DNA of 64,000 bases from Candidatus Tayloriibacteriota bacterium (lineage in GTDB: Bacteria > Patescibacteriota > Minisyncoccia > Phycocordibacterales > SIBU01), in NCBI GenBank assembly GCA_009695005.1, contig SIBU01000002.1, positions 7,274 to 71,273 on the forward strand, given 5' to 3'. Of the stretch, positions 5,328 through 21,468 are shown piece by piece. The position numbers were made by a program, and so were the translations under genes. Every line of letters begins with the position of its first letter. The stretch's first letter is position 1. The notes beneath the pieces are model-generated. The model had not been told where the DNA came from, made no database searches, and saw nothing but the letters and a program-made list of their open reading frames with translations.

Positions 5328-6218
5328 TTATTTGTAACGAGATAAAAGATAATTTTCTAAGGATTTTTTCCAGGAAATTGTTTCTAAATTGTCAGAGTGC
5401 GCAAGGACAGTGCAAGTCGGACGTTTAACAGAGTGGGTTTTTTTGAATGAACATTTTTTTATGAGTGAAGTGTCGAGCTTAAGAATTTTTGCGACTTCCT
5501 TTGCAATGTCGTATTTAGTTACACCTTGTTCTTTTTTTGAGGCGCCGATTTGATAGATTTTTGTCGTATTAGGTTTTTTTTCAGATATAAGTTTAAGGGC
5601 TACATTGACTATATCTTTTGTCCAAACAGGAATATTGAATTGGTCATTTATCGCTTCGAGTAATTGATTTTGCTTAAGTGTTTTGACAACCATATCGATA
5701 AAAGTGTCACGACCGTCTCCATACAACCAACCGGCGCGTAAAATATAAAAATTCTCTGAAAAGTTTTTTCCGATTTGCTGAACGATTTGTTCCCCACCAC
5801 ATTTTGACCAACCGTAGACGTTTACAGGTGTAGGTAAATCATTTTCCACATACTTTTTCTTACTTCCACCGAAAATGTCGGAAGTACTGATTTGAATAAG
5901 TTTTGTGTCGGTAAGGTTGGATTCCTTGATTACCTCCGCGATGATCCCAGCTCCAATGGTATTGACGTTCCATGCGGTAAGCGGGTTTTTTTCACAGAAA
6001 TCTACATTTACCACAACCGCACAGTTTACTACGGCGTTGGGGCGATTTTCTGAAATTATTTTAGTGACTACTGTTTTGTCAGTTATGTCAGCGGATTCTT
6101 TGGAGTAAGCAATAATTTCCAAACCATTAGGTTTTCCAGATAAAGAAGCGAATTCTTTTCCAAGTAAACCATTTGAACCAAAGACAACAATTTTATTGTT
6201 AGTTTTTCTTGTAGTCAT
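5328..6218 (-). CDS. RmlD-like NAD(P)H-dependent NDP-4-keto-sugar reductase
   Basis: N-terminal Rossmann motif (KIVVFGSNGLLG). Has STSDIFGG (compare RmlD STDYVFDG) and YGWSK (YxxxK). ATG at 6216-6218. Confidence 0.5.
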   Translation of the reverse strand: MTTRKTNNKIVVFGSNGLLGKEFASLSGKPNGLEIIAYSKESADITDKTVVTKIISENRPNAVVNCAVVVNVDFCEKNPLTAWNVNTIGAGIIAEVIKESNLTDTKLIQISTSDIFGGSKKKYVENDLPTPVNVYGWSKCGGEQIVQQIGKNFSENFYILRAGWLYGDGRDTFIDMVVKTLKQNQLLEAINDQFNIPVWTKDIVNVALKLISEKKPNTTKIYQIGASKKEQGVTKYDIAKEVAKILKLDTSLIKKCSFKKTHSVKRPTCTVLAHSDNLETISWKKSLENYLLSRYK

Positions 6219-7389
6219 GGGAGAAGATGGATATTAGAATTTTTATATCTGAGTTCGACAGGTCGGGGTTATTTCCAAAATAAATTCCTTGTTCGTGGAT
6301 TAAAGAGGAAGTGGAATTTATAATTTGTGAACCTTTCATATATTTTTTAAAAAAAGGCTGTTTAGTCATGTCGCCACCAACTATTGGACGAATTTCCACT
6401 TTTTTATTGCAGGCTTCGATTATGGAGTCGCGGATTTCCTTTGTCTTGCAGATGATAGGGAAGGCGAAATTGGAAATAACATCTAAATGGTTAGATTGAA
6501 TTGGATAATATAAGTCAGTGCGTGTGTAGATTGCCTCAGCAAATTTTTTGAAATTACTTTCGCGTTTCTTGACGATAGTGTTTAAGTGGGAGAGTTGAGC
6601 GTTTCCAAGAAAGCCGGATATCTCGGTGGGCCTTAGGTTGTAACCTAGATCGTAAAATGTGTATTTTGCGTAAAGGGAGTCTGACACGCCAAATTCTTTT
6701 CTTATTTTTTTCTGTCCATCCTCTCCTAGGTTGCGGTCCCAGCCGTGGGCGCGGACAATTTTAAGCATTCGTGCTAACTTTGGATCGTCTGTGCAAACGG
6801 CGCCACCTTCAATTGTTGAGAGGTGGTGGGCAGCAAAAAAAGAAAAAGTGCTGGCAAGACCAAAGTTTCCAAGTTTTTTTCCTTTATAAACTGTACCAAG
6901 TGCCTCACAAGTATCCTCGAGAATCAAAATGTTCTTTTCTTTGCAGTAGGATTGAATTTTTTCCATATCGCCGCAAAAACCTAGAAGGTGAGTAATGAAA
7001 AGAACTCTGATAGGATTTTTTTCTGTTGCACTTTTGAAAGTTCTTGATGAAACGTTGAGGGTTTCGATTTCTACGTCAACAGGTATAGCCTTGAGACCAA
7101 GTTCAATAATCGGCATAACATTTGTCGCCCAAGTTAGTGCAGAAAAAGCTACTGAGTCTCCACGTTTTATAGTGCCAAGATTTAAAAGGGTTTGAAGAAT
7201 TGCTAGATTAGCAGAGCTTCCGCTGTTAAAAAAAACAGCATGCTTTCTGTTTTGCCATAATGCAAAAGAGTTTTCAAATTTTTCGCACTCCTTTCCGAAA
7301 CTTAGGGCGTCTGTTTTTTCTATGAAACGACAAAGTTTCTTTTTTGTGCCCTTTTCCTTGAAGAATACATTTTTGACAAGTGGTATCAT
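6199..7389 (-). CDS. PLP-dependent sugar 3-dehydratase, ColD/E1-like (DegT/DnrJ/EryC1 fold with His replacing catalytic Lys)
   Basis: DegT-family core (SGSSANLAIL ... FSFFAAHHLSTIEGGAV ... RAHGWDRN). The Schiff-base position is His (FFAAHH), as in ColD and E1 dehydratases. RAHGW is a ColD-type motif. ORF start at 7413 is TTG; the first ATG (MIPLVKN..) is at 7387-7389. Confidence 0.55.
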   Translation of the reverse strand: MIPLVKNVFFKEKGTKKKLCRFIEKTDALSFGKECEKFENSFALWQNRKHAVFFNSGSSANLAILQTLLNLGTIKRGDSVAFSALTWATNVMPIIELGLKAIPVDVEIETLNVSSRTFKSATEKNPIRVLFITHLLGFCGDMEKIQSYCKEKNILILEDTCEALGTVYKGKKLGNFGLASTFSFFAAHHLSTIEGGAVCTDDPKLARMLKIVRAHGWDRNLGEDGQKKIRKEFGVSDSLYAKYTFYDLGYNLRPTEISGFLGNAQLSHLNTIVKKRESNFKKFAEAIYTRTDLYYPIQSNHLDVISNFAFPIICKTKEIRDSIIEACNKKVEIRPIVGGDMTKQPFFKKYMKGSQIINSTSSLIHEQGIYFGNNPDLSNSDIKILISIFSHDYKKN

Positions 7390-7462
7390 ATTTTGGCTGA
7401 TTTTAGGGGTCAATTGTTGCCTAATGCTAATGGATGGTGGCCGTGATATTATACCTTACACT

Positions 7463-9638: not shown

Positions 9639-10613
9639 TTATTCGTAATTTATTGTTTCAACCCTTCCTGATTTAGATGATTTTATAATCGCATCTAGTA
9701 TGATTGCTTGGTCGAGGAAGGCTTTGTTGTATTGAAGGTAAGACTCGGGTTTAATTTTTGCATAATGGTTAAACATTTCTAGAAAAGAATCGGAAGATTC
9801 TACTGGAATATCTTTGGCAATGTTGCGCGATCTGTAAAGGATGTTATTAGTGTAATCTTTCGGCGCCGTAAACGCTCGGTCCAAAGACAAATAAAAACCA
9901 GAACCCCACAGGTCTAAATTATTTCTATATTCCAGGTCAAAACCGATATCACCTTGTAAAGTTTTGCTTTCTCCGAAATCAATTGTAACCGCGGCTAGCA
10001 TCGGGATACCACTCTGTTTATTGATACTTACCGAACAGTACACCTTTTTCGGTCTACTGTTGAAATAATACTGACCAACCGAAACTAAGTAGGGGCCTAA
10101 GTCAAAGAGACAGCCTCCTCCAAGTTTTTTGTCGTTGCGGTAGTTATTTTTTTCTAGTGGAGGAAATCCAAATTGAACACTAATTTTATTCAGTGAAGAA
10201 GTTTGAGATTCTAATATAATTTTCAACTTTTGATGCTGGCTGTGATAAAGGTAGGGGATTGACTCAAAAATCAATAATTGATTATTTGCCAATTGGTAGC
10301 ATTTTTTCGCTTCTTTTTTTGAGAGTACTGCAGGCTTATCCACGATAATATTTAATTTTCTTTTCAAGCAGTAATCAATCAATTTGTAGTGTGATGAATT
10401 TTGCGTGGAAATATAAACGGTGTCACAGCCACTTTTCTCGATCGCTCTCTCATAATTATCAAAAATAGGTAGGTCGGAGTTGATTTTCGAAGCCTTGGTT
10501 TGTGAAGCGATGCCTACTAAGGTCACTTTTTTATGATTTTTTATAGCAGGAATTATTGCCTTTTGGGCAATAGCTGAATATCCAATGAGTAGAATTTTAT
10601 TTTTTTTTATCAT
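9639..10613 (-). CDS. Gfo/Idh/MocA-family oxidoreductase, putative NDP-hexose 3-ketoreductase (KijD10/OleW type)
   Basis: N-terminal Rossmann (KILLIGYSAIAQKAIIPAI). GFO_IDH_MocA layout (..DTVYISTQNSSHYKLIDYCLKRKLNIIVDKP..). Its stop lies 6 bp from the 2,3-dehydratase gene start, which implies a coupled function. Confidence 0.5.
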   Translation of the reverse strand: MIKKNKILLIGYSAIAQKAIIPAIKNHKKVTLVGIASQTKASKINSDLPIFDNYERAIEKSGCDTVYISTQNSSHYKLIDYCLKRKLNIIVDKPAVLSKKEAKKCYQLANNQLLIFESIPYLYHSQHQKLKIILESQTSSLNKISVQFGFPPLEKNNYRNDKKLGGGCLFDLGPYLVSVGQYYFNSRPKKVYCSVSINKQSGIPMLAAVTIDFGESKTLQGDIGFDLEYRNNLDLWGSGFYLSLDRAFTAPKDYTNNILYRSRNIAKDIPVESSDSFLEMFNHYAKIKPESYLQYNKAFLDQAIILDAIIKSSKSGRVETINYE

Positions 10614-10619
10614 TTAGCG

Positions 10620-11348
10620 TCAAAGTGGACTGAGGATTGCCTTTACATATGGATTAACTATATTATCAACTAACATTAAAGCTTTTATTTCCGATAGAGA
10701 TAGCCAAATAAAATTATCATTTTCTTGCAGGGGAAGTTTAACTCCTGGCTTCAACAGATTTAATCTGCTCACGTTGCTTTTTTGCCAGAATCTTCCACCC
10801 TCCTCATTCTGACTGGCGGAATAAATAATTGTTGTATCGGGATGGTCAATATACTCGCTAAGAATAGGTTTGTGGCCCGAGTGATGTTGTCTCAGGTTAC
10901 TCATCGTTGCTTGGATAGAAGGTCCGAATTGAATTCTATTAATATTTCCACCCTCAAACTTGGCCTGCAATAAAAATTTAATCTCCCCTTTAATTTCTTG
11001 ACACAAGATAACCAAGTAGCCCCCTTCTTCCTGGACTATAATTGGCTGATCCCAACCAGAGACCTCGGAACTATTCGCATTTTGCACTCTTATTCCTTGA
11101 ACTGAAAAAAAATGACTGGTGCCTGCTTTGTGTCTGACCATCCCTTCTTTCTCTGAGTAAATCCAATCTTTCAATGAAGAAATTGGGAGTATCTGAATCG
11201 TCGATTGGTTTTTTGCTCTTTTTTTATGTAACCAATCCGTAGCGCGTTTAATATTCACTTTTGCTTTTTTCTTGTTAGAAAAAACTTTTGACCTTAGTTC
11301 ATTTAACCTTTTAGTATAAACTCGGGAGTTATTTTTAACCGTTTCCAT
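10620..11348 (-). CDS. NDP-hexose 2,3-dehydratase-like protein, single domain (half the size of EvaA/TylX3)
   Basis: Motifs HFFSVQGIRV, DQPIIVQEEGGYLVIL, LLQAKFEGGN, SQNEEGGRFW and FIWLSLSEI align (from memory) with the C-terminal Nudix-like repeat of 2,3-dehydratases. Only one repeat is present (242 aa). Confidence 0.5.
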   Translation of the reverse strand: METVKNNSRVYTKRLNELRSKVFSNKKKAKVNIKRATDWLHKKRAKNQSTIQILPISSLKDWIYSEKEGMVRHKAGTSHFFSVQGIRVQNANSSEVSGWDQPIIVQEEGGYLVILCQEIKGEIKFLLQAKFEGGNINRIQFGPSIQATMSNLRQHHSGHKPILSEYIDHPDTTIIYSASQNEEGGRFWQKSNVSRLNLLKPGVKLPLQENDNFIWLSLSEIKALMLVDNIVNPYVKAILSPL

Positions 11349-11358
11349 GGTGGAATAA

Positions 11359-11387
11359 ATTATATATAGACCTATTTATATTTGCAA
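11359..11387 (-). promoter_or_regulatory. Candidate sigma70-like promoter for the 2,3-dehydratase/3-ketoreductase unit (-35 TTGCAA, 17-nt spacer, -10 TATAAT, ~10-nt leader)
   Basis: Minus strand reads TTGCAA-N17-TATAAT-ttattccacc-ATG(11348). Hexamers are at 11382-11387 and 11359-11364. AT-rich background makes chance matches likely. Confidence 0.3.
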
Positions 11388-11623
11388 ACTTGTATAAAAG
11401 ACTACCCATTTTCCCACTTTCTGAATGGCCGTTGATATTATTTTTGTAAAACAGGAAGCGATTTCAAACGTCAGTTTTCACTGAAACAAGTTAAGTTTTC
11501 TTTCAGGCTCAAGAATGAAAATAGCAGGTGCACGAACAGGCCCGCCACCGATATGATTTTGAATTTTTTTAAACCGCTTTACTAAATTGAGTGTGTTGAT
11601 TCCAGAATTACGTTAATCATGTT

Positions 11624-12487
11624 TTACGCTTTTCTATCAAACACACTATTTGATTTCAGTATTTTTGAAATACTCTGGGGGTAATAGTTCAAAGTGGTGT
11701 ATGTTTGAATACAATCCATAGATAAATTTGCTAATCTGATATCTTTTGATAAATCTAATTCTTCGGGGATAATCAGACTTGTGTCAAAATTAAAATGTTC
11801 TGCTATTTTTAAAGCAAAATCATATCTAGATAGACTTTCTGATCCTGCACAGTGAAATATTCCTCGATGCTCCTTTTCGATAATAATTCGAAGCATATTA
11901 CATAAATCTCCAATATAAGTAGGATTGTTTATTAGATTTACATAGGCATGAAAATTTCCCTCCCGTTTTAATTTCGTGTATACCTCATCAACAAAATCGT
12001 TTTTTGTTCCAAAAATTCCGCCTATTCGTACTATGACAAAATCAATCAAATTATTTCTTATCAGGTTCTCAGTTGCCAGTTTATCTTTCCCGTATTGCGT
12101 AGTTGGCACTGCAACTGATAATTCATCATGTTTATGAACGCCGTCAAAAACAGCATCTGTTGAAATATAAATCAATTTTATTTTATTTTCAAAACACTGT
12201 GAAATGATATTTTCTGAAGCTTCAAAATTAATTCTTCTTGAAAAAATCTTATCTGCTTCACATTTAGCCATATCCTTGCTTCCAGCAAGATGGAGAATAA
12301 TGTCTGGGGAAACAGATTTAATATATTGATTTGTTTTTATAAAGTCAGTTAAATCAACGTTACGGACATTTTCATGAATATGGGTATTAGAAAATCCAAT
12401 AGGAATAATTTGGTTTTCCTCGTCAGGAAGCATTCGCAATAATTCGCTACCGATATAACCAGTTGCACCGGTCATCAGAATTTTCAT
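11624..12487 (-). CDS. RmlD-like dTDP-4-keto-6-deoxyhexose reductase
   Basis: MKILMTGATGYIGSEL Rossmann. ISTDAVFDG (RmlD STDYVFDG motif). 287 aa is RmlD size. ATG at 12487. Confidence 0.6.
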   Translation of the reverse strand: MKILMTGATGYIGSELLRMLPDEENQIIPIGFSNTHIHENVRNVDLTDFIKTNQYIKSVSPDIILHLAGSKDMAKCEADKIFSRRINFEASENIISQCFENKIKLIYISTDAVFDGVHKHDELSVAVPTTQYGKDKLATENLIRNNLIDFVIVRIGGIFGTKNDFVDEVYTKLKREGNFHAYVNLINNPTYIGDLCNMLRIIIEKEHRGIFHCAGSESLSRYDFALKIAEHFNFDTSLIIPEELDLSKDIRLANLSMDCIQTYTTLNYYPQSISKILKSNSVFDRKA

Positions 12488-12760
12488 TTTATCATTTAGG
12501 AAAATTTTGATAATAACACTGAGACAATTAACAACTTCTTTCGATATTCTTAATTTGTTGACCTGTAAATATTTTCCGTATCCAGTGAAAATCTGGGGTT
12601 AAACTCATCGGAATTGGGAGTAAAAAATATATCCATCATGTACGTTTCGCTTTTTTGAAAGCAGATGTCATGTTAAAGCCCGTAAATCAGTTGCCGTCTG
12701 GGACAAGAATTTTTTTCATAAGGTTGAATATAATTTAATTACTTACCGTTCGTCTTAAAA

Positions 12761-14122
12761 TTATTTCTTGATTTTCTTGGTTGTTACTGTTTTTTTATAT
12801 TCCTCCGCTCCCACAATTCGAGGAAAGGGAATGGGGATAATAAATTTACCTCCTTTGTCGCTAAAATCTTTGAGGTTGGCAATGATTTCCTTGGAAAAAT
12901 TCCAAGCTAGAAGTAGTGCATAATCCACCCCTTCGTTTATGAGTTCTACGTCGGAGACGACAGGAACGTGTCCACCGCCATGGCCACCCGGTGCGAAGCG
13001 GCCAATTTTCAAGCGCGCTCTTTCCGAAATAAGTTTGATGTGTCGGTTTGAAACTCCGATGTAATTTAAAAGAGTCATGCCTTTGGCAGGAGCCGAAACC
13101 ACCGCCAACTTTTTTCCTTGGTGTAGTAGTTTTTCAATAATCGTCATGAGTTCATCGCGATTTTTTCTAACACGTTTGGCAAAATTAAGCATGGTTTCCT
13201 TTTCGTGGAGTTTTGATTCTTTTTCAGCTTGAAGGAATTTTTGGACACTTGCATCAATCGAACGTGTACCGGTCCTTGCTATAAACACTCTGATGGAACC
13301 GCCATGAATATTGGTTTCTCTAATCATAAATATTTCCAAACCAAATTTGGCGAAGAAAGAAATGAGGGGTTTTATGGAAAGGTAAGACAGGTGTTCATGA
13401 TATACGGTATCGTATTCAAGATTTTCGACGAGGTGCTGAAAATACGGCGACTCAAAGATGAAAACCCCGTTCTTTTTAAGGATATATTTTACCGCGCGCA
13501 TTATTTCGTGCAGATCATCTATATGCGCGAACACGTTTGTGCCGACAATGACGGAAGCTGCGCCGACAAGTTTTTTGACTTTTTTGGCGCTTTCCATGCT
13601 GAAAAAATCGCAGATAGTCTTAATACCGTGTTCTTTGTTGGCTATTGCAACGATATTCGGAGCGGGATCAACCCCGATGGTTTTCATTCCCAGCTCTTTG
13701 AAAGATTTAAGAAGTGTGCCGACATTGCTTCCGATATCGACAATAACGTCATCTTTTTTTAATGAAAGGTCGGCGGTGATGGATTCCGCGAAACTGCCCC
13801 AGTGAGCCTGACCCGTTTTGGTCATCGATTGCTCGTAAGGATAGTCTAGTTGATATAGGACTTTCGGGTTGACTATATGACTTAACTGCGAGAGTCCGCA
13901 ATTTTCGCATAAAAGGACTCGTAGCGGATAAGAAATTTCCGGGATATCTAGTTCGTGCGCCGCTCTGAATTGGTCCGCGGGTGGAGTTAAACCCATGTCA
14001 AGATACAAGAAGAGTTTAGGGCTTTTGCACATTCGACAGACGGATGTTACACGATAGAGGTCTTTTACCGCTTCAGCCTGGATGTCTTTTTGCTTATGAT
14101 TTGTTTTTCGGTTGATAGTCAT
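12761..14122 (-). CDS. NDP-hexose C-methyltransferase, TylC3/NovU/EvaC family (Zn-ribbon + MTase + C-terminal domain)
   Basis: N-terminal CxxC...CxxC ribbon (CRMCKS...CENCGLSQL). Class I MTase motif (VIVDIGSNVGTL). Typical family length. ORF start at 14137 is TTG; the first ATG is at 14120-14122 (MTINRK..). Confidence 0.6.
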   Translation of the reverse strand: MTINRKTNHKQKDIQAEAVKDLYRVTSVCRMCKSPKLFLYLDMGLTPPADQFRAAHELDIPEISYPLRVLLCENCGLSQLSHIVNPKVLYQLDYPYEQSMTKTGQAHWGSFAESITADLSLKKDDVIVDIGSNVGTLLKSFKELGMKTIGVDPAPNIVAIANKEHGIKTICDFFSMESAKKVKKLVGAASVIVGTNVFAHIDDLHEIMRAVKYILKKNGVFIFESPYFQHLVENLEYDTVYHEHLSYLSIKPLISFFAKFGLEIFMIRETNIHGGSIRVFIARTGTRSIDASVQKFLQAEKESKLHEKETMLNFAKRVRKNRDELMTIIEKLLHQGKKLAVVSAPAKGMTLLNYIGVSNRHIKLISERARLKIGRFAPGGHGGGHVPVVSDVELINEGVDYALLLAWNFSKEIIANLKDFSDKGGKFIIPIPFPRIVGAEEYKKTVTTKKIKK

Positions 14123-14401
14123 ATAATAAGATGCCAAATTCTTGCATATTTTTTTCTGATTTGCAACATCTGTAATGTATCACGACCTTCGCAATACATG
14201 AAGTAAAATTATGTATGTTCCAGACACGATAAATTTCCAAATCTTGCTTTACTTTAGACTAGGGATGCAATAAAGACCTTTCCTAAAAGATTCCGACTCC
14301 AAAAATAAATATGAGTAAGGTGAAGGAAGTGGAAGAAAATAGCAGAAAAAATTTCGTGTAAAGAATCAGCTAGGAAAAGCCTGTTTAAAAAATTGTGAAA
14401 A

Positions 14402-15667: not shown

Positions 15668-15862
15668 ATTATGTTTCGATAATGGTAGCATGTATATATA
15701 GGGTTTTCCACATATACTGTAACAATCGAAAATTGCTGTAGTTACAAGACGATATGATGTGTGAAGCGGATTTCTCAGCGATTTAGCCCTACTTACTAAA
15801 TTAAATAGTTAATTATTTCATCAAGTAGGATATGAAAGAGTGCTGTGCTAGTATTGTTGACT

Positions 15863-16654
15863 ATGAATGCACAAATTGTATCGACCTTGGGTCCATCTAG
15901 CGGAAGCGAGAAAGTTTTGGTAGCAATGATTAAGGGAGGTATAAATATAGCTCGATTAAATTTTTCATGGGGTACTCATGAGGAGCATGGCTTACGTGTA
16001 GATAACCTTCGTAAGGCTGCCAAAAAACTTAAAAAGAGGATCCTAATCCTTCTGGATTTGTCTGGGCCAAGAGTGGCTGCTAAAGGTGGACATCATTTTG
16101 ACGGTGTAAGTAAAAAAATATTGACTAAAAAGGATATAAACGATCTTAATTTTGCTAAGAAATATGGTGTTGATTACGTTGCCCTTTCTTATGTCGGATG
16201 TGCGGCAGATGTGGTAGATCTTAAAGAGGAGTTGAAGAAAAAAGGCGTTACCGCAAAAGTAGTTGATAAAATTGAAAGAAAGAAGGCTTTCGATAATTTG
16301 GATGAAATTTTGAAAGAAGCTGACGCCATTATGATTGCCCGCGGAGATTTGGGGAATGAAATTCCTTTGGAAAAAATTCCTTACGTTCAAAGTATTATTA
16401 TTGCCAGAGCCAAGGAGGCGGGGAAGCCGGTGATTACTGCAACAGAAATGATGATATCAATGGTTGAAAAATCAAGACCTTCACGTGCGGATGTTTCGGA
16501 TGTTACAGTTGCAATTTTAACCGGAACAGATGCTGTTATGCTTTCCGAGGAGACAGCTATCGGTAAGTATCCTGTTGAAGTTGTGCAGATGATGAAAAGA
16601 ATAGCCGTAGAAGCTTCTCGTCAGCCGTTCGCTAAACCTCTCAATTCTTTTTAG
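15863..16654 (+). CDS. Pyruvate kinase-like protein, A-domain (TIM barrel) only; lacks B (lid) and C (allosteric) domains
   Basis: PK signatures: IVSTLGPSS, INIARLNFSWGTHEEH, LLDLSGP, MIARGDLGNEIPLEKIPYVQSIII, PVITATEMMISMV, PSRADVSDVTVAILTGTDAVMLSEETAIGKYPVEVV. Only ~17 aa lie between DLSGP and the second barrel half. The protein ends at ~264 aa. ORF start at 15845 is GTG; ATG at 15863 gives the canonical MNAQIVSTLGP. Confidence 0.6.
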   Translation: MNAQIVSTLGPSSGSEKVLVAMIKGGINIARLNFSWGTHEEHGLRVDNLRKAAKKLKKRILILLDLSGPRVAAKGGHHFDGVSKKILTKKDINDLNFAKKYGVDYVALSYVGCAADVVDLKEELKKKGVTAKVVDKIERKKAFDNLDEILKEADAIMIARGDLGNEIPLEKIPYVQSIIIARAKEAGKPVITATEMMISMVEKSRPSRADVSDVTVAILTGTDAVMLSEETAIGKYPVEVVQMMKRIAVEASRQPFAKPLNSF

Positions 16655-17406: not shown

Positions 17407-18639
17407 CTAATATTTTTTAAGAAAATCAGTAAATATTTTTTTCATATAATCAAGCATTTCCGGAGTTAATCCTTGATGAGCACCTACTGCGAAGGTATCC
17501 TTCATTATTTTGTCGGCATTTTTGAGTTCCCCAACAACTCTTCGTGGTAAGTTTTTGTAAGCTGGATGTCTTAAGATGTTTCCCGCAAAGAAGAGTCTTG
17601 TTTGGATGTTTTGGCTTTCCAGGTATTTTACTATTGTAAAGCGGTCAAAGGGCGCCCCGTCTCTAATGGTAAGAGGGAATGCCAGCCAGCTTGATTTAGC
17701 ATTACTGTGTTCCTCCGGTAAAATAAAATATTTCTCATATTCCTTAAAAAACCTTTTTAAGGAATCAAAGTTATGTTTACGAATTTTAATTACATTCGGC
17801 AATCTTTTTAGTTGTTCTAGTCCGAAGGCGAACATCATTTCGACAGGCTTTAGATTAAAACCCATATGAGTATAAGTAAATTTCCTGTCATAATGAATAC
17901 CTGTAATTTTTGTGGTAAAACGCTTTTCTAGGCTTTCATCATCGTTAAGAGCTGCTCTACCCCATTCACGATAAGAATAAGCCGATTCGTATAATTTTTT
18001 GTCTGAAACCGCAACGATACCTCCGCCTCCTCCTGCCGTGATGTGATGTGAGGCGTAGAAACTTGACGTGGTTACATCACTGTAGGTTCCTGCCGGCTTT
18101 CCGTTGAATGTTCCAGCCATAGTGTCGCAACTATCATCTATGAGATAAAGTTTGTGCTTGTTGCAAAAAGCACGAAGTTTTACCATGTCATTTAAATTAC
18201 CAAAAGCGTGCGGAATTAATATCGCTTTAGTTTTTGGAGAAATCATTTTAGGAAGATTGTTGAGATCTAGGTTGTAAGTGCCAAGTTCAGAATCACCAAC
18301 TACAGGTACTAAATTATTGATATATATCGTGCTGTAAGTGGTAGAGAAAGTGCACGCAGGAGTGATTACCTCACTACCTGGAGGGAGATTTAATATTTTG
18401 AGGGCGAGTAGGTTTGCCGATGATCCTGAATTGACTACTATGCCGTATTTTTTTCCAAAAAGCTTGGAGGTTTTTTTTTCGAATTCCTCCACAATTGGTC
18501 CCATTCCAAGCCAGCCACGTTTGAGACAGGCTACTACTGCCTCTATTTCCTCTTCACCGTACACTGTTTGAGCATAGTAAACTTTATCTTTTCCTGGGGT
18601 AAACTTTCCTGACTTATTGTGTATTCCGTAATATTTCAT
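17407..18639 (-). CDS. PLP-dependent NDP-4-keto-6-deoxyhexose 3-dehydratase, E1/SpnQ-like (His in place of Lys)
   Basis: DegT fold (VVNSGSSANLLAL ... SFYASHHITAGGGGG ... YREWGR). The HH motif is at the Lys position. The E1-type FRDWGR-like motif is present. ATG at 18637-18639. Confidence 0.55.
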   Translation of the reverse strand: MKYYGIHNKSGKFTPGKDKVYYAQTVYGEEEIEAVVACLKRGWLGMGPIVEEFEKKTSKLFGKKYGIVVNSGSSANLLALKILNLPPGSEVITPACTFSTTYSTIYINNLVPVVGDSELGTYNLDLNNLPKMISPKTKAILIPHAFGNLNDMVKLRAFCNKHKLYLIDDSCDTMAGTFNGKPAGTYSDVTTSSFYASHHITAGGGGGIVAVSDKKLYESAYSYREWGRAALNDDESLEKRFTTKITGIHYDRKFTYTHMGFNLKPVEMMFAFGLEQLKRLPNVIKIRKHNFDSLKRFFKEYEKYFILPEEHSNAKSSWLAFPLTIRDGAPFDRFTIVKYLESQNIQTRLFFAGNILRHPAYKNLPRRVVGELKNADKIMKDTFAVGAHQGLTPEMLDYMKKIFTDFLKKY

Positions 18640-19566: not shown

Positions 19567-20556
19567 CTATTTATTTTTATAAAAAGACAGTGTAATCAAT
19601 AAACCTTCGTCAAAAGAAACTGCTGGTTTCCAGCCGAGCTCTACTTTTATTTTTGTACAGTCCAGTGAGTAACGAAAATCATGACCTGGGCGATCTGGTA
19701 CGTACATAATATAGGAGTTGTCGAGTTTGTGGAAAGCAAGTAATTTTTTTGTAAGTTCGAGATTGCTTAGTTCTGTGTTACCTGCAATGTTATAAACTTC
19801 ACCACTTTTCCCACTCTGAAATACCAAATCAATTGCTCTAATATTGTCCTCAACGAACAACCAGTCACGTATCTGGGCGCCCTCTCCATACAACGGAACT
19901 TTTTTGCCTCTTGAAAGATTGGTGGTAAAAAGAGGTATAAGTTTGCTTTTGTCTTGATGTGGACCGTAATTGTTGGAAGATCTGGTAATAATAATATCTA
20001 GACCAAAAGTATGGTGGTATGAATGTACAAGACGATCTGCTGCTGCTTTTGACGCACTGTAAGGATTGCGTGGCATAAGAGGGGAGTCTTCGGTAAAGAC
20101 CCCTTTTTTTGTTGCAAGTGCCCCGTATACTTCGTCGGTTGAGATAAAAAGAAATCTTTTTGTTTTGAATTCTCTCGCTAAAATAAGTAAATTGTGAGTT
20201 CCCATGACGTTTGTTTCTATAAACAGACTAGGGTTTTTTATACTTAAATCTACATGACTTTCCGCTGCGAAATGAATTATGTCAGTTGGCTGATATTTTT
20301 TAAAAATTTTACGTAAATTTGAAATGTTTCGTATGTCCGCTTTTTCAAAAATGTAATTTATTTCCTTATCAATTTTAATGTTATCGATGTTTGCCGCGTA
20401 GGTTAGGCTATCAATATTGATAAACAGTGTGTCGGGATAAGCGACTACAAATTTATTCAAATAGTGACTTCCGATGAAGCCGGCACCGCCAGTTACTACA
20501 ATTCTTTTTTTGTAGGAAGGGGGTGATTTTTTTGAATTACTTCTTTTTGTTGTCAT
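19567..20556 (-). CDS. rmlB: dTDP-glucose 4,6-dehydratase
   Basis: IVVTGGAGFIGSHY, HFAAESHVDLSI, TNVMGTHNLL, STDEVYG and YSASKAAAD are all RmlB hallmarks. ORF-track start is TTG (20601); the first ATG at 20556 gives MTTKRS... Confidence 0.7.
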   Translation of the reverse strand: MTTKRSNSKKSPPSYKKRIVVTGGAGFIGSHYLNKFVVAYPDTLFINIDSLTYAANIDNIKIDKEINYIFEKADIRNISNLRKIFKKYQPTDIIHFAAESHVDLSIKNPSLFIETNVMGTHNLLILAREFKTKRFLFISTDEVYGALATKKGVFTEDSPLMPRNPYSASKAAADRLVHSYHHTFGLDIIITRSSNNYGPHQDKSKLIPLFTTNLSRGKKVPLYGEGAQIRDWLFVEDNIRAIDLVFQSGKSGEVYNIAGNTELSNLELTKKLLAFHKLDNSYIMYVPDRPGHDFRYSLDCTKIKVELGWKPAVSFDEGLLITLSFYKNK

Positions 20557-21283
20557 TATTTTTATTGCGAATAAAATTTGCAGTTTCAAGCAAACTGTCA
20601 AACGTGCCTATATCGAACCATTCTTTTTTTAAAAAGATACCATGAAGTTTGCCATCCTTGATATATTGCTTGTTTATGTCGGTAATTTCGTACTCACCTC
20701 TCTCTGATGCTTTGAGACTTAAACATTTCTTAAAAACTGTACTGTCATACATATAAACACCGGTCACAGCGTAATTGGTCTTTGGTTTGGTTGGTTTTTC
20801 ATCAATATCTAGAATCTTGCTGTTTTGTCCAAGTGTAGCAATGCCGAATCTTTCAGGGTCCGCTACTTCTTTTAGAAACACCGTCGCTCCACTTTTGAAT
20901 TTTTTTATGTGTGGTGTTAGGTCGTCTTCAAAAATATTGTCGCCAAGATACAGCACACAGTTATCATTACCGATGTAATCTTTGGCGATCCATAAGCCGT
21001 AAGCAATGCCATTGGGCTGGTTTTGGATACCGTAGACAATTTGTATTTGCTTGCCGGTGCGTTTTGACATGAAATCAGCCCCTGAACCGAGAAGTTTAAC
21101 CATAGATTCGATTGCTTCAGGTGAAGTGACAATCATGATTCGGTCGATTCCAGCGTCTACAAGTTTTTTGACCGCGTAATAGATTACAGGCTTATCATAT
21201 AGAGCAAGTAGATGTTTGTTGGTAGAAACGGTTAAAGGACGAAGTCTGGTTCCACCACCTCCGGCGAGTATAATCCCTTTCAT
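20537..21283 (-). CDS. rmlA: Glucose-1-phosphate thymidylyltransferase-like sugar nucleotidyltransferase
   Basis: MKGIILAGGGGTRLRPLTVSTNKHLLALYDKPVIYY matches the RmlA N-terminus (MKGIILAGGSGTRLYP...IYDKPMIYY). ORF-track start is TTG (21337); the canonical ATG (MKGII) at 21283 is used. Confidence 0.6.
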   Translation of the reverse strand: MKGIILAGGGGTRLRPLTVSTNKHLLALYDKPVIYYAVKKLVDAGIDRIMIVTSPEAIESMVKLLGSGADFMSKRTGKQIQIVYGIQNQPNGIAYGLWIAKDYIGNDNCVLYLGDNIFEDDLTPHIKKFKSGATVFLKEVADPERFGIATLGQNSKILDIDEKPTKPKTNYAVTGVYMYDSTVFKKCLSLKASERGEYEITDINKQYIKDGKLHGIFLKKEWFDIGTFDSLLETANFIRNKNNDNKKK

Positions 21284-21468
21284 TTGCTTGTTATTTGACA
21301 TGAGGGTAATCATAACGACATTTGAAAACTGTGTCAAAGAAAAGGTCCTTGATTTGGGCGGTAATTATTCTCTTGTTTTAGCGGTTTAATTAAGGGCTGA
21401 AACCCTTGGTCCATTTCACCTAAACCACTCTATTTACACTCCTAAGCGGTACCGCTATAATTCGAATT

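Follow-up and report, generated by a model that had tools for sequence, protein, structure and literature searches.

Canonical sugar 2,3-dehydratases such as EvaA and TylX3 are proteins of about 470 aa built from two tandem repeats, and, to our knowledge, all sugar 2,3-dehydratases studied by biochemistry or structure have two repeats and come from antibiotic pathways of actinomycetes. Our literature search for a characterised single-repeat enzyme likewise returned actinomycete two-repeat enzymes only, or nothing. A metagenome-assembled genome of Candidatus Taylorbacteria (Patescibacteria/CPR) carries an apparent homologue of half this size, for which the original prediction offered two explanations: a novel single-domain form that works as a homodimer, or the remnant of a gene whose other half decayed into the long spacer upstream. 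We asked which of these the gene is and what its product would do, using the 64-kb stretch of DNA in which it lies (hereafter the window), its homologues elsewhere, and a predicted structure. The features discussed are collected in Table 1.

Table 1. Features of the window discussed in the text (positions count from the first nucleotide of the window)
Feature	Position	Strand	Basis
Gfo/Idh/MocA oxidoreductase, predicted KijD10-like NDP-sugar 3-ketoreductase	9639..10613	minus	PF01408, PF22725; 3rbv E 2e-21
Single-repeat (half-size) NDP-hexose 2,3-dehydratase homologue	10620..11348	minus	242 aa, PF03559, EvaA match
AT-rich intergenic spacer, 275 bp, no dehydratase-repeat remnant	11349..11623	.	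six-frame profile search, tblastn
Promoter-like TTGCAA-17-TATAAT	11359..11387	minus	consensus match only; ends 11 nt before ATG
RmlD-like NDP-4-ketohexose reductase	11624..12487	minus	PF04321 E 4.6e-47; TIGR01214 149.8 bits, below cut-off 224
NDP-hexose 3-C-methyltransferase (MtmC/TcaB9/KijD1 type)	12761..14137	minus	PF08421, PF13489, PF08484
dTDP-glucose 4,6-dehydratase (RmlB)	19567..20601	minus	TIGR01181 388 bits, above cut-off 365.1
RmlA-like glucose-1-phosphate thymidylyltransferase	20537..21337	minus	TIGR01207 best, 244.8 bits, below equivalog cut-off 360

The ORF opens with an ATG and is not extendable 5', since an in-frame stop lies nine codons before this start. Its product is identical to GenBank MSU54996.1, which is named "hypothetical protein EXS46_00470". 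A Pfam scan returned PF03559 (NDP-hexose 2,3-dehydratase) alone, as one match (E 2e-50, 171.5 bits against a gathering cut-off of 25) that spans residues 36-241 and about positions 4-202 of the 203 in the profile, i.e., the whole repeat; an NCBIfam scan returned no model for the protein. By sequence, the sole solved relative is EvaA (PDB 4J7G/4J7H, 471 aa; E 1e-45), in which two stretches are matched. In a scan of 1.84 billion cluster representatives, about 145 of the best 150 were two-repeat proteins, mostly of 415-510 aa. The half-size ORF with a single repeat, its membership of PF03559, and the larger two-repeat form with which it had been compared were thus all upheld, and the two-repeat architecture is absent from the 242-aa protein. 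Three of the sequence motifs originally listed are present, namely HFFSVQG (79-85), DQPIIVQEEGG (100-110), and QAKFEGG (128-134), while the fourth, given as SEEGGRFW, does not occur and actually reads NEEGGRFW (181-188).

These motifs had been taken as those of the C-terminal repeat only, an assignment that the alignment to EvaA overturned. The protein scores 103.0 bits against the N-repeat of EvaA (residues 41-244; 35% identity) and 54.5 bits against its C-repeat (263-451; 23% identity). Similarly, of 179 two-repeat proteins, 177 match a profile HMM of the single-repeat family better with their N- than with their C-repeat, with a mean margin of 61 bits, and the two exceptions are N-terminally truncated fragments; among the two-repeat matches in the scan of cluster representatives, the best stretch lay in the N-terminal half for almost all. 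The earlier assignment, though wrong overall, had a real basis in the EEGGRF motif, which is typical of C-repeats: NEEGGRF joins the catalytic Glu of the N-repeat with the second Glu and the Gly-Arg typical of the C-repeat, and this accounts for the C-terminal look of the motifs. According to a review (PMC8987622), pocket A of EvaA is the active site, with E139 and E190 essential, and pocket B is described as an inactive leftover of gene duplication. Both glutamates are located in the N-repeat, and their counterparts in the ORF are E132 and E182; across 33 aligned single-repeat homologues, E182 never varies, and position 132 is Glu in at least 90% and otherwise Asp. The same review names E352 and D353 as pocket-B mutants (PMC8987622), and the EvaA chain sequence in the PDB has Val at position 352, at odds with E352, and Asp at 353.

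The resemblance to the N-repeat bears on the second of the original explanations, in which one half of a two-repeat gene decayed into the upstream spacer and the other remained as an inert ORF, a reading drawn solely from the size of the protein (242 vs. ~470 aa) and from the long spacer. As what is retained is the counterpart of the N-repeat, the missing partner should be sought downstream, where just 6 bp separate the ORF stop from the next gene, and the upstream spacer can in any case fit at most 91 codons, under half of the ~200 needed for a repeat. We searched this spacer and three neighbouring gaps in six frames with profile HMMs, built either from the single-repeat family or from all repeats and run with filters off, and obtained at most 2.6 bits, so that the residue of an N-terminal repeat proposed to lie there did not appear in any frame. 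A tblastn search of the ORF against the window found no second copy and nothing in the spacer, a default-filter profile scan of the whole window recovered the ORF itself and no second repeat, and a full-length two-repeat gene could not be reconstructed by one frameshift. The closest relative (P0002), also 242 aa long and 78% identical, shares the downstream gene and has at least 250 bp of non-coding DNA 5' of its own gene. Between the two genes dN/dS is 0.094 (dS ~1.3), which indicates strong purifying selection on the ORF and contradicts an inert remnant, and length and C-terminal end are alike across dozens of lineages. Judged from its sequence, the gene is intact and the decay reading, to which we give next to no credence, is refuted.

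The spacer itself was correctly described as a 275-bp non-coding gap, as its longest ORF does not exceed 25 aa. It is long compared with the median gap of the window (6.5 bp), and in this sense "unusually long" was apt, but it is not unique, given that the next two same-strand gaps upstream measure 273 and 264 bp; these three consecutive gaps of 264-275 bp are the longest same-strand gaps in the window, and we found no shared repeat or alignable element in them. The spacer has no Rfam match, no terminator-like site, and no excess folding energy (z between -0.9 and +0.75); an RNA gene was rejected on these grounds, and a small protein gene on the length of its ORFs. A promoter-like site lies just before the gene (Table 1) and would imply a very short leader. 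Such sites are no more numerous in the region than expected from shuffled sequence, and a 29-nt stretch overlapping this one is 86% identical to the region upstream of the gene of the closest relative (locus L063). The spacer is ordinary intergenic DNA that probably holds the gene's own promoter, and the simplest, if weakly supported, reading of the three long gaps is that each gene behind them has its own promoter region. The spacer has no connection to the half size of the gene.

A word-indexed search across 5.8 billion proteins ranked about 55 complete homologues, each 225-258 aa long, above the first two-repeat group, and the 33 aligned homologues have 38 invariant columns and, in every member, a common C-terminal end motif. 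The original prediction had suggested checking orthologous loci for full-length versions. A pattern scan that took one genome from each GTDB species detected 51 genome loci, all of which carry one repeat; its patterns were specific to the single-repeat family, and the scan hence enumerates this family rather than PF03559 genes at large. Cultured carriers include Bradyrhizobium BWA-3-5 (complete genome), B. lablabi CCBAU 23086, sp. 190, and SRL28, and carriers among metagenome-assembled genomes are assigned to Caulobacter, Brevundimonas, Rhodospirillales, Pelagibacteraceae, Haliangiales, Acidobacteria, and Candidatus Gottesmanbacteria. Some members are auto-named "NDP-hexose 2,3-dehydratase family protein" or "oxidase EvaA" in databases. 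The single-repeat form is thus an uncharacterised variant that is widespread and already present in public databases under automatic names.

We then turned to the structure that a single repeat may adopt. An AlphaFold2 model of the 242-aa protein, built from the 33-sequence alignment, reached a mean pLDDT of 87.8 and a pTM of 0.86, and its best PDB matches by Foldseek were the four EvaA chains (E ~1e-15, TMq 0.75-0.76, 29-30% identity; 4j7h_A: E 1.3e-15, TMq 0.76). The predicted structure is in this respect an EvaA-like, Nudix-like fold. After a large gap followed Nudix NDP-sugar hydrolases (ADP-ribose pyrophosphatases, E. coli YffH, and human NUDT5) with E ~1e-4, TM 0.4-0.5, and 9-12% identity. 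These hydrolases resemble the 242-aa protein in having one Nudix-type domain of similar size, and they differ from it in catalysing hydrolysis and not dehydration and in possessing the Nudix box; on direct reading, the 242-aa sequence contains no such box (GX5EX7REUXEEXGU), and the Pfam scan gave no PF00293 match. ADP-ribose pyrophosphatases, YffH (a GDP-mannose hydrolase), and NUDT5 act as homodimers, and so provide a precedent for a single-domain protein with this fold that handles NDP-sugars as a homodimer.

A comparison of conserved residues points the same way. In an alignment of 58 single-repeat sequences, 170 N-repeats, and 170 C-repeats, the single-repeat family keeps all seven columns conserved in both repeat types, 17 of the 22 conserved (at 90% or more) in N-repeats only (including K130, Q146, T148, N151, H156, K190, and N194), and all three conserved in C-repeats only (R94, E183, and G185). 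The protein of the window has Ser at 94 and Gln at 180, where the family has R94 and His180; these states occur in other members of its CPR subclade or in N-repeats. Each protomer of the family thus carries the union of N- and C-repeat residues, as would be expected if both halves of a symmetric dimer do both jobs. It is plausible, on the basis of these residues and by analogy with the Nudix hydrolases, that the 242-aa protein acts as a symmetric homo-oligomer (a homodimer or a dimer of dimers) with both pockets active. A two-repeat enzyme is a pseudo-dimeric chain in which pocket A is live and pocket B vestigial; the single-repeat dimer would have two active pockets.

The protein could instead be one half of a split enzyme and pair, as a heterodimer, with a C-repeat-like subunit whose gene lies elsewhere in the genome. 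This option gains some ground from the extent of the search, which covered 64 kb of the genome from an 86-kb contig, and from two alphaproteobacterial loci (L026 and L041) that each carry two single-repeat paralogues 2-3 kb apart. Yet all four of these paralogues keep the NEEG-RF motif and the C-terminal motif of the family, none is a degenerate C-type repeat, and the strict QAK-E-GN pattern is matched in one copy of each pair. There is no second repeat gene within the window, no second copy within ~6 kb on either side in 45 of 47 genome loci, and no family of stand-alone C-type repeats among the matches, and the single-repeat family itself retains the conserved residues specific to C-repeats. 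We consider a split enzyme improbable and a symmetric homo-oligomer more likely.

The origin of the single-repeat family was addressed with trees. In neighbour-joining trees with bootstraps, computed on 136 and 280 repeat sequences, the single-repeat sequences form a clade with 99% bootstrap apart from all characterised enzymes. The split of C-repeats from N-repeats plus single repeats received 50-68%, and monophyly of the N-repeats 18-28%. In 40-50% of replicates the single-repeat clade was sister to just one N-repeat, that of the two-repeat protein P0111, and in 17-25% it was sister to the N-repeats as a whole. Mean identities are 34.7% between single and N-repeats, 25.4% between single and C-repeats, and 27.4% between N- and C-repeats, values that fit a near-star topology with a longer C branch. 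A nesting of the single-repeat family inside the N-repeats is weakly suggested by these sequences, and the family may have arisen either before the duplication or through an early loss of the C-repeat. It is possible, though we hold this only tentatively, that the family is a surviving pre-duplication lineage of EvaA-type enzymes, or split off about then, and that it would form a symmetric homodimer with two live sites, each protomer keeping the residues that were later partitioned between the two repeats.

Further evidence on function comes from the gene neighbourhood. The dehydratase gene lies in a same-strand block with those for the 3-C-methyltransferase, the RmlD-like reductase, and the Gfo/Idh/MocA oxidoreductase, the last of which begins 6 bp past its stop, and further along the cluster are two RfbH/E1-like proteins, a second RmlD-like reductase, and many glycosyltransferases. 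The best PDB match of the oxidoreductase, nearly full length, is the sugar 3-ketoreductase 3rbv (E 2e-21), which we take to be KijD10. The best matches of the methyltransferase are the D-mycarose 3-C-methyltransferase 4rv9 (E 1.6e-90), TcaB9 (E 7e-67), and the sugar 3-C-methyltransferase 5T64, presumably KijD1. The context expected for a 2,3-dehydratase is thus present in the window, with the 4,6-dehydratase RmlB in the cluster and a KijD10-like 3-ketoreductase immediately downstream. Of the 47 genome loci in which the gene is intact, 42 have a Gfo-type gene within 2.5 kb of it, 45 a DegT aminotransferase gene (mostly adjacent), and 31 an RmlB-like gene, and metagenomic contigs show like neighbours. 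A 2,3-dehydratase yields an unstable product that passes directly to a 3-ketoreductase (Gra-Orf26, TylC1, KijD10) or to a 3-aminotransferase (EvaB), and for this reason the conserved Gfo and DegT neighbours fit 2,3-dehydratase chemistry. With the 99% clade, the low dN/dS, and the catalytic residues, this conserved deoxysugar neighbourhood supports the first of the original explanations as regards a genuine single-domain form.

We consider it probable, from sequence comparison and modelling, that the 242-aa protein is a working single-repeat NDP-4-keto-6-deoxyhexose 2,3-dehydratase of the EvaA/TylX3 family, the homo-oligomeric state being the least secure part of this proposal. Going by homology and gene context, the RmlA-like enzyme and RmlB of the cluster would supply dTDP-4-keto-6-deoxyglucose, from which the 242-aa protein would remove the C-2 hydroxyl as water by means of its predicted catalytic residues E132 and E182. 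The predicted product, an unstable dTDP-3,4-diketo-2,6-dideoxyhexose, would be taken up at once by the adjacently encoded KijD10-like 3-ketoreductase, and the MtmC-type 3-C-methyltransferase and the RmlD-like 4-ketoreductase may then complete a mycarose-like 2,6-dideoxy-3-C-methylhexose destined for a surface glycan. Because the RmlA-, RmlD-, and RfbH-type neighbours score under their NCBIfam equivalog cut-offs, the nucleotide carrier and the final sugar are predictions only. For the proteobacterial loci, an amino-trideoxy sugar would be the more likely product, and, given the adjacent DegT gene in most of these loci, the family may mostly serve amino-deoxysugar pathways instead of a mycarose-like one.

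The same neighbours can also be read differently. A Gfo and DegT pair makes 3-amino sugars without 2-deoxygenation as well, these two are the most constant neighbours of the gene, the function of the family is a prediction, and its clade stands apart from all characterised enzymes; the protein might accordingly use the same fold for another step on an NDP-sugar (hydrolysis, isomerisation, or a GnnA/GnnB-type 3-amino-sugar step) and not be a 2,3-dehydratase at all. We judge this unlikely, as both catalytic glutamates of EvaA and most N-repeat-specific residues are kept, the canonical box of Nudix hydrolases is missing from the sequence, the closest structure to the Gfo neighbour is a 3-ketoreductase that acts after a 2,3-dehydratase, and RmlB-type 4,6-dehydratases occur both near the gene in 31 of the 47 loci and in the window. 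A single-repeat 2,3-dehydratase fits these observations better.

Compared with known systems, the 242-aa protein is closest to the group of EvaA (Amycolatopsis orientalis), TylX3, OleV, Gra-Orf27, and SpnO, with which it has in common PF03559, the Nudix-like fold (as predicted, TMq 0.76), both glutamates, and the logic of the pathway, in which the substrate is the RmlB product and a 3-ketoreductase or an aminotransferase comes next. It differs from this group in having one repeat instead of two (~470 aa), in lacking the vestigial pocket-B domain, and in being only 35% identical to the N-repeat of EvaA. In contrast to the EvaA group, moreover, the single-repeat family mixes residues specific to N- and C-repeats, and its genes occur in surface-glycan clusters in Patescibacteria and in Alphaproteobacteria, whereas the EvaA group belongs to actinomycete antibiotic clusters. 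As for the pathways to dTDP-mycarose (MtmC for D-mycarose; TylX3-TylC1-TylC3-TylK-TylC2 for L-mycarose) and kijanose (KijD10, KijD1), the window holds homologues of the 2,3-dehydratase, 3-ketoreductase, 3-C-methyltransferase, and 4-ketoreductase in one same-strand block; it differs in that no 3,5- or 5-epimerase was identified beside the window genes and in the predicted role in a cell-surface glycan of uncultured Taylorbacteria.

For annotation, our data caution that a half-length PF03559 match is not a fragment. A one-repeat form with intact catalytic residues offers a minimal enzyme for structural and mechanistic work, and a natural test of the account of duplication and subfunctionalisation given for the two-repeat enzymes. 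The gene may also serve as a marker suggesting that Bradyrhizobium, Caulobacter-type bacteria, and ultra-small Patescibacteria, for which 2-deoxy or 3-amino-2,3,6-trideoxy sugars are not usually considered, have them in their surface glycans. Were the pre-duplication origin true, the hypothesis that pocket B is a fossil of gene duplication would become directly testable, and the known range of 2-deoxysugar synthesis would come to include surface glycans in Patescibacteria and in many Alphaproteobacteria.

The gene for the single-repeat 2,3-dehydratase lies beside the first of three consecutive intergenic gaps, which are the longest between same-strand genes in the window, where the median gap is 6.5 bp. 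Searches of these three gaps found neither a common sequence among them nor an Rfam match, RNA-structure signal, or ORF. A possible explanation for the long gaps is that the cluster is a mosaic in which each gene has its own promoter. The start codons of two neighboring genes are ambiguous: the longest ORF of the 3-C-methyltransferase gene (12761-14137, minus strand) encodes 458 aa with a TTG start versus 453 aa in the public gene call, and that of the RmlD-like reductase gene (11624-12487, minus strand) encodes 287 aa versus 283 aa. Start-codon ambiguity also explains the 65-bp overlap between the listed RmlA-like and RmlB ORFs.

Features discussed in this part (coordinates of the L026 and L041 copies are those of their loci)
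Feature	Coordinates	Strand	Details
RfbH/E1-like DegT-family protein	17407-18639	-	NF011936, 411.9 bits (cut-off 423)
RfbH/E1-like DegT-family protein	6199-7413	-	NF011936, 223 bits (cut-off 423)
Pyruvate kinase-like ORF	15845-16654	+	269 aa; TIGR01064, 311.9 bits
Intergenic gap	11349-11623		275 bp, between same-strand genes
Intergenic gap	12488-12760		273 bp, between same-strand genes
Intergenic gap	14138-14401		264 bp, between same-strand genes
Single-repeat paralogues, L026	3048-3749 and 5731-6615
Single-repeat paralogues, L041	4087-4776 and 6934-7638

In other genomes, two alphaproteobacterial MAG loci (L026 and L041) each carry two single-repeat paralogues, which are 2-3 kb apart, share ~48-53% identity within pairs, and keep the NEEG-RF motif in all four copies; the paired copies may serve separate sugars or form a heterodimer. 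The single-repeat gene is split into several ORF pieces in six further loci (L054 and L057-L061), mostly from long-read MAGs, and these could be either true pseudogenes or assembly frameshift errors. For the two-repeat enzyme EvaA, a review (PMC8987622) gives the mutated pocket-B residues as E352 and D353, whereas the PDB 4J7G chain sequence has Val at position 352 and Asp at 353; in the C-repeat, D353 corresponds to E139.

Elsewhere in the glycan cluster, the pyruvate kinase-like ORF gives strong matches to pyruvate kinase models, though these are confined to two stretches. The larger stretch covers positions 166-337 of 476 in TIGR01064, and the ORF looks like a truncated pyruvate kinase. The two RfbH/E1-like proteins are possible SpnQ/E1-type sugar 3-dehydrases; if so, together with the 2,3-dehydratase, 2,3,6-trideoxy or 3,6-dideoxy sugars would be possible products.
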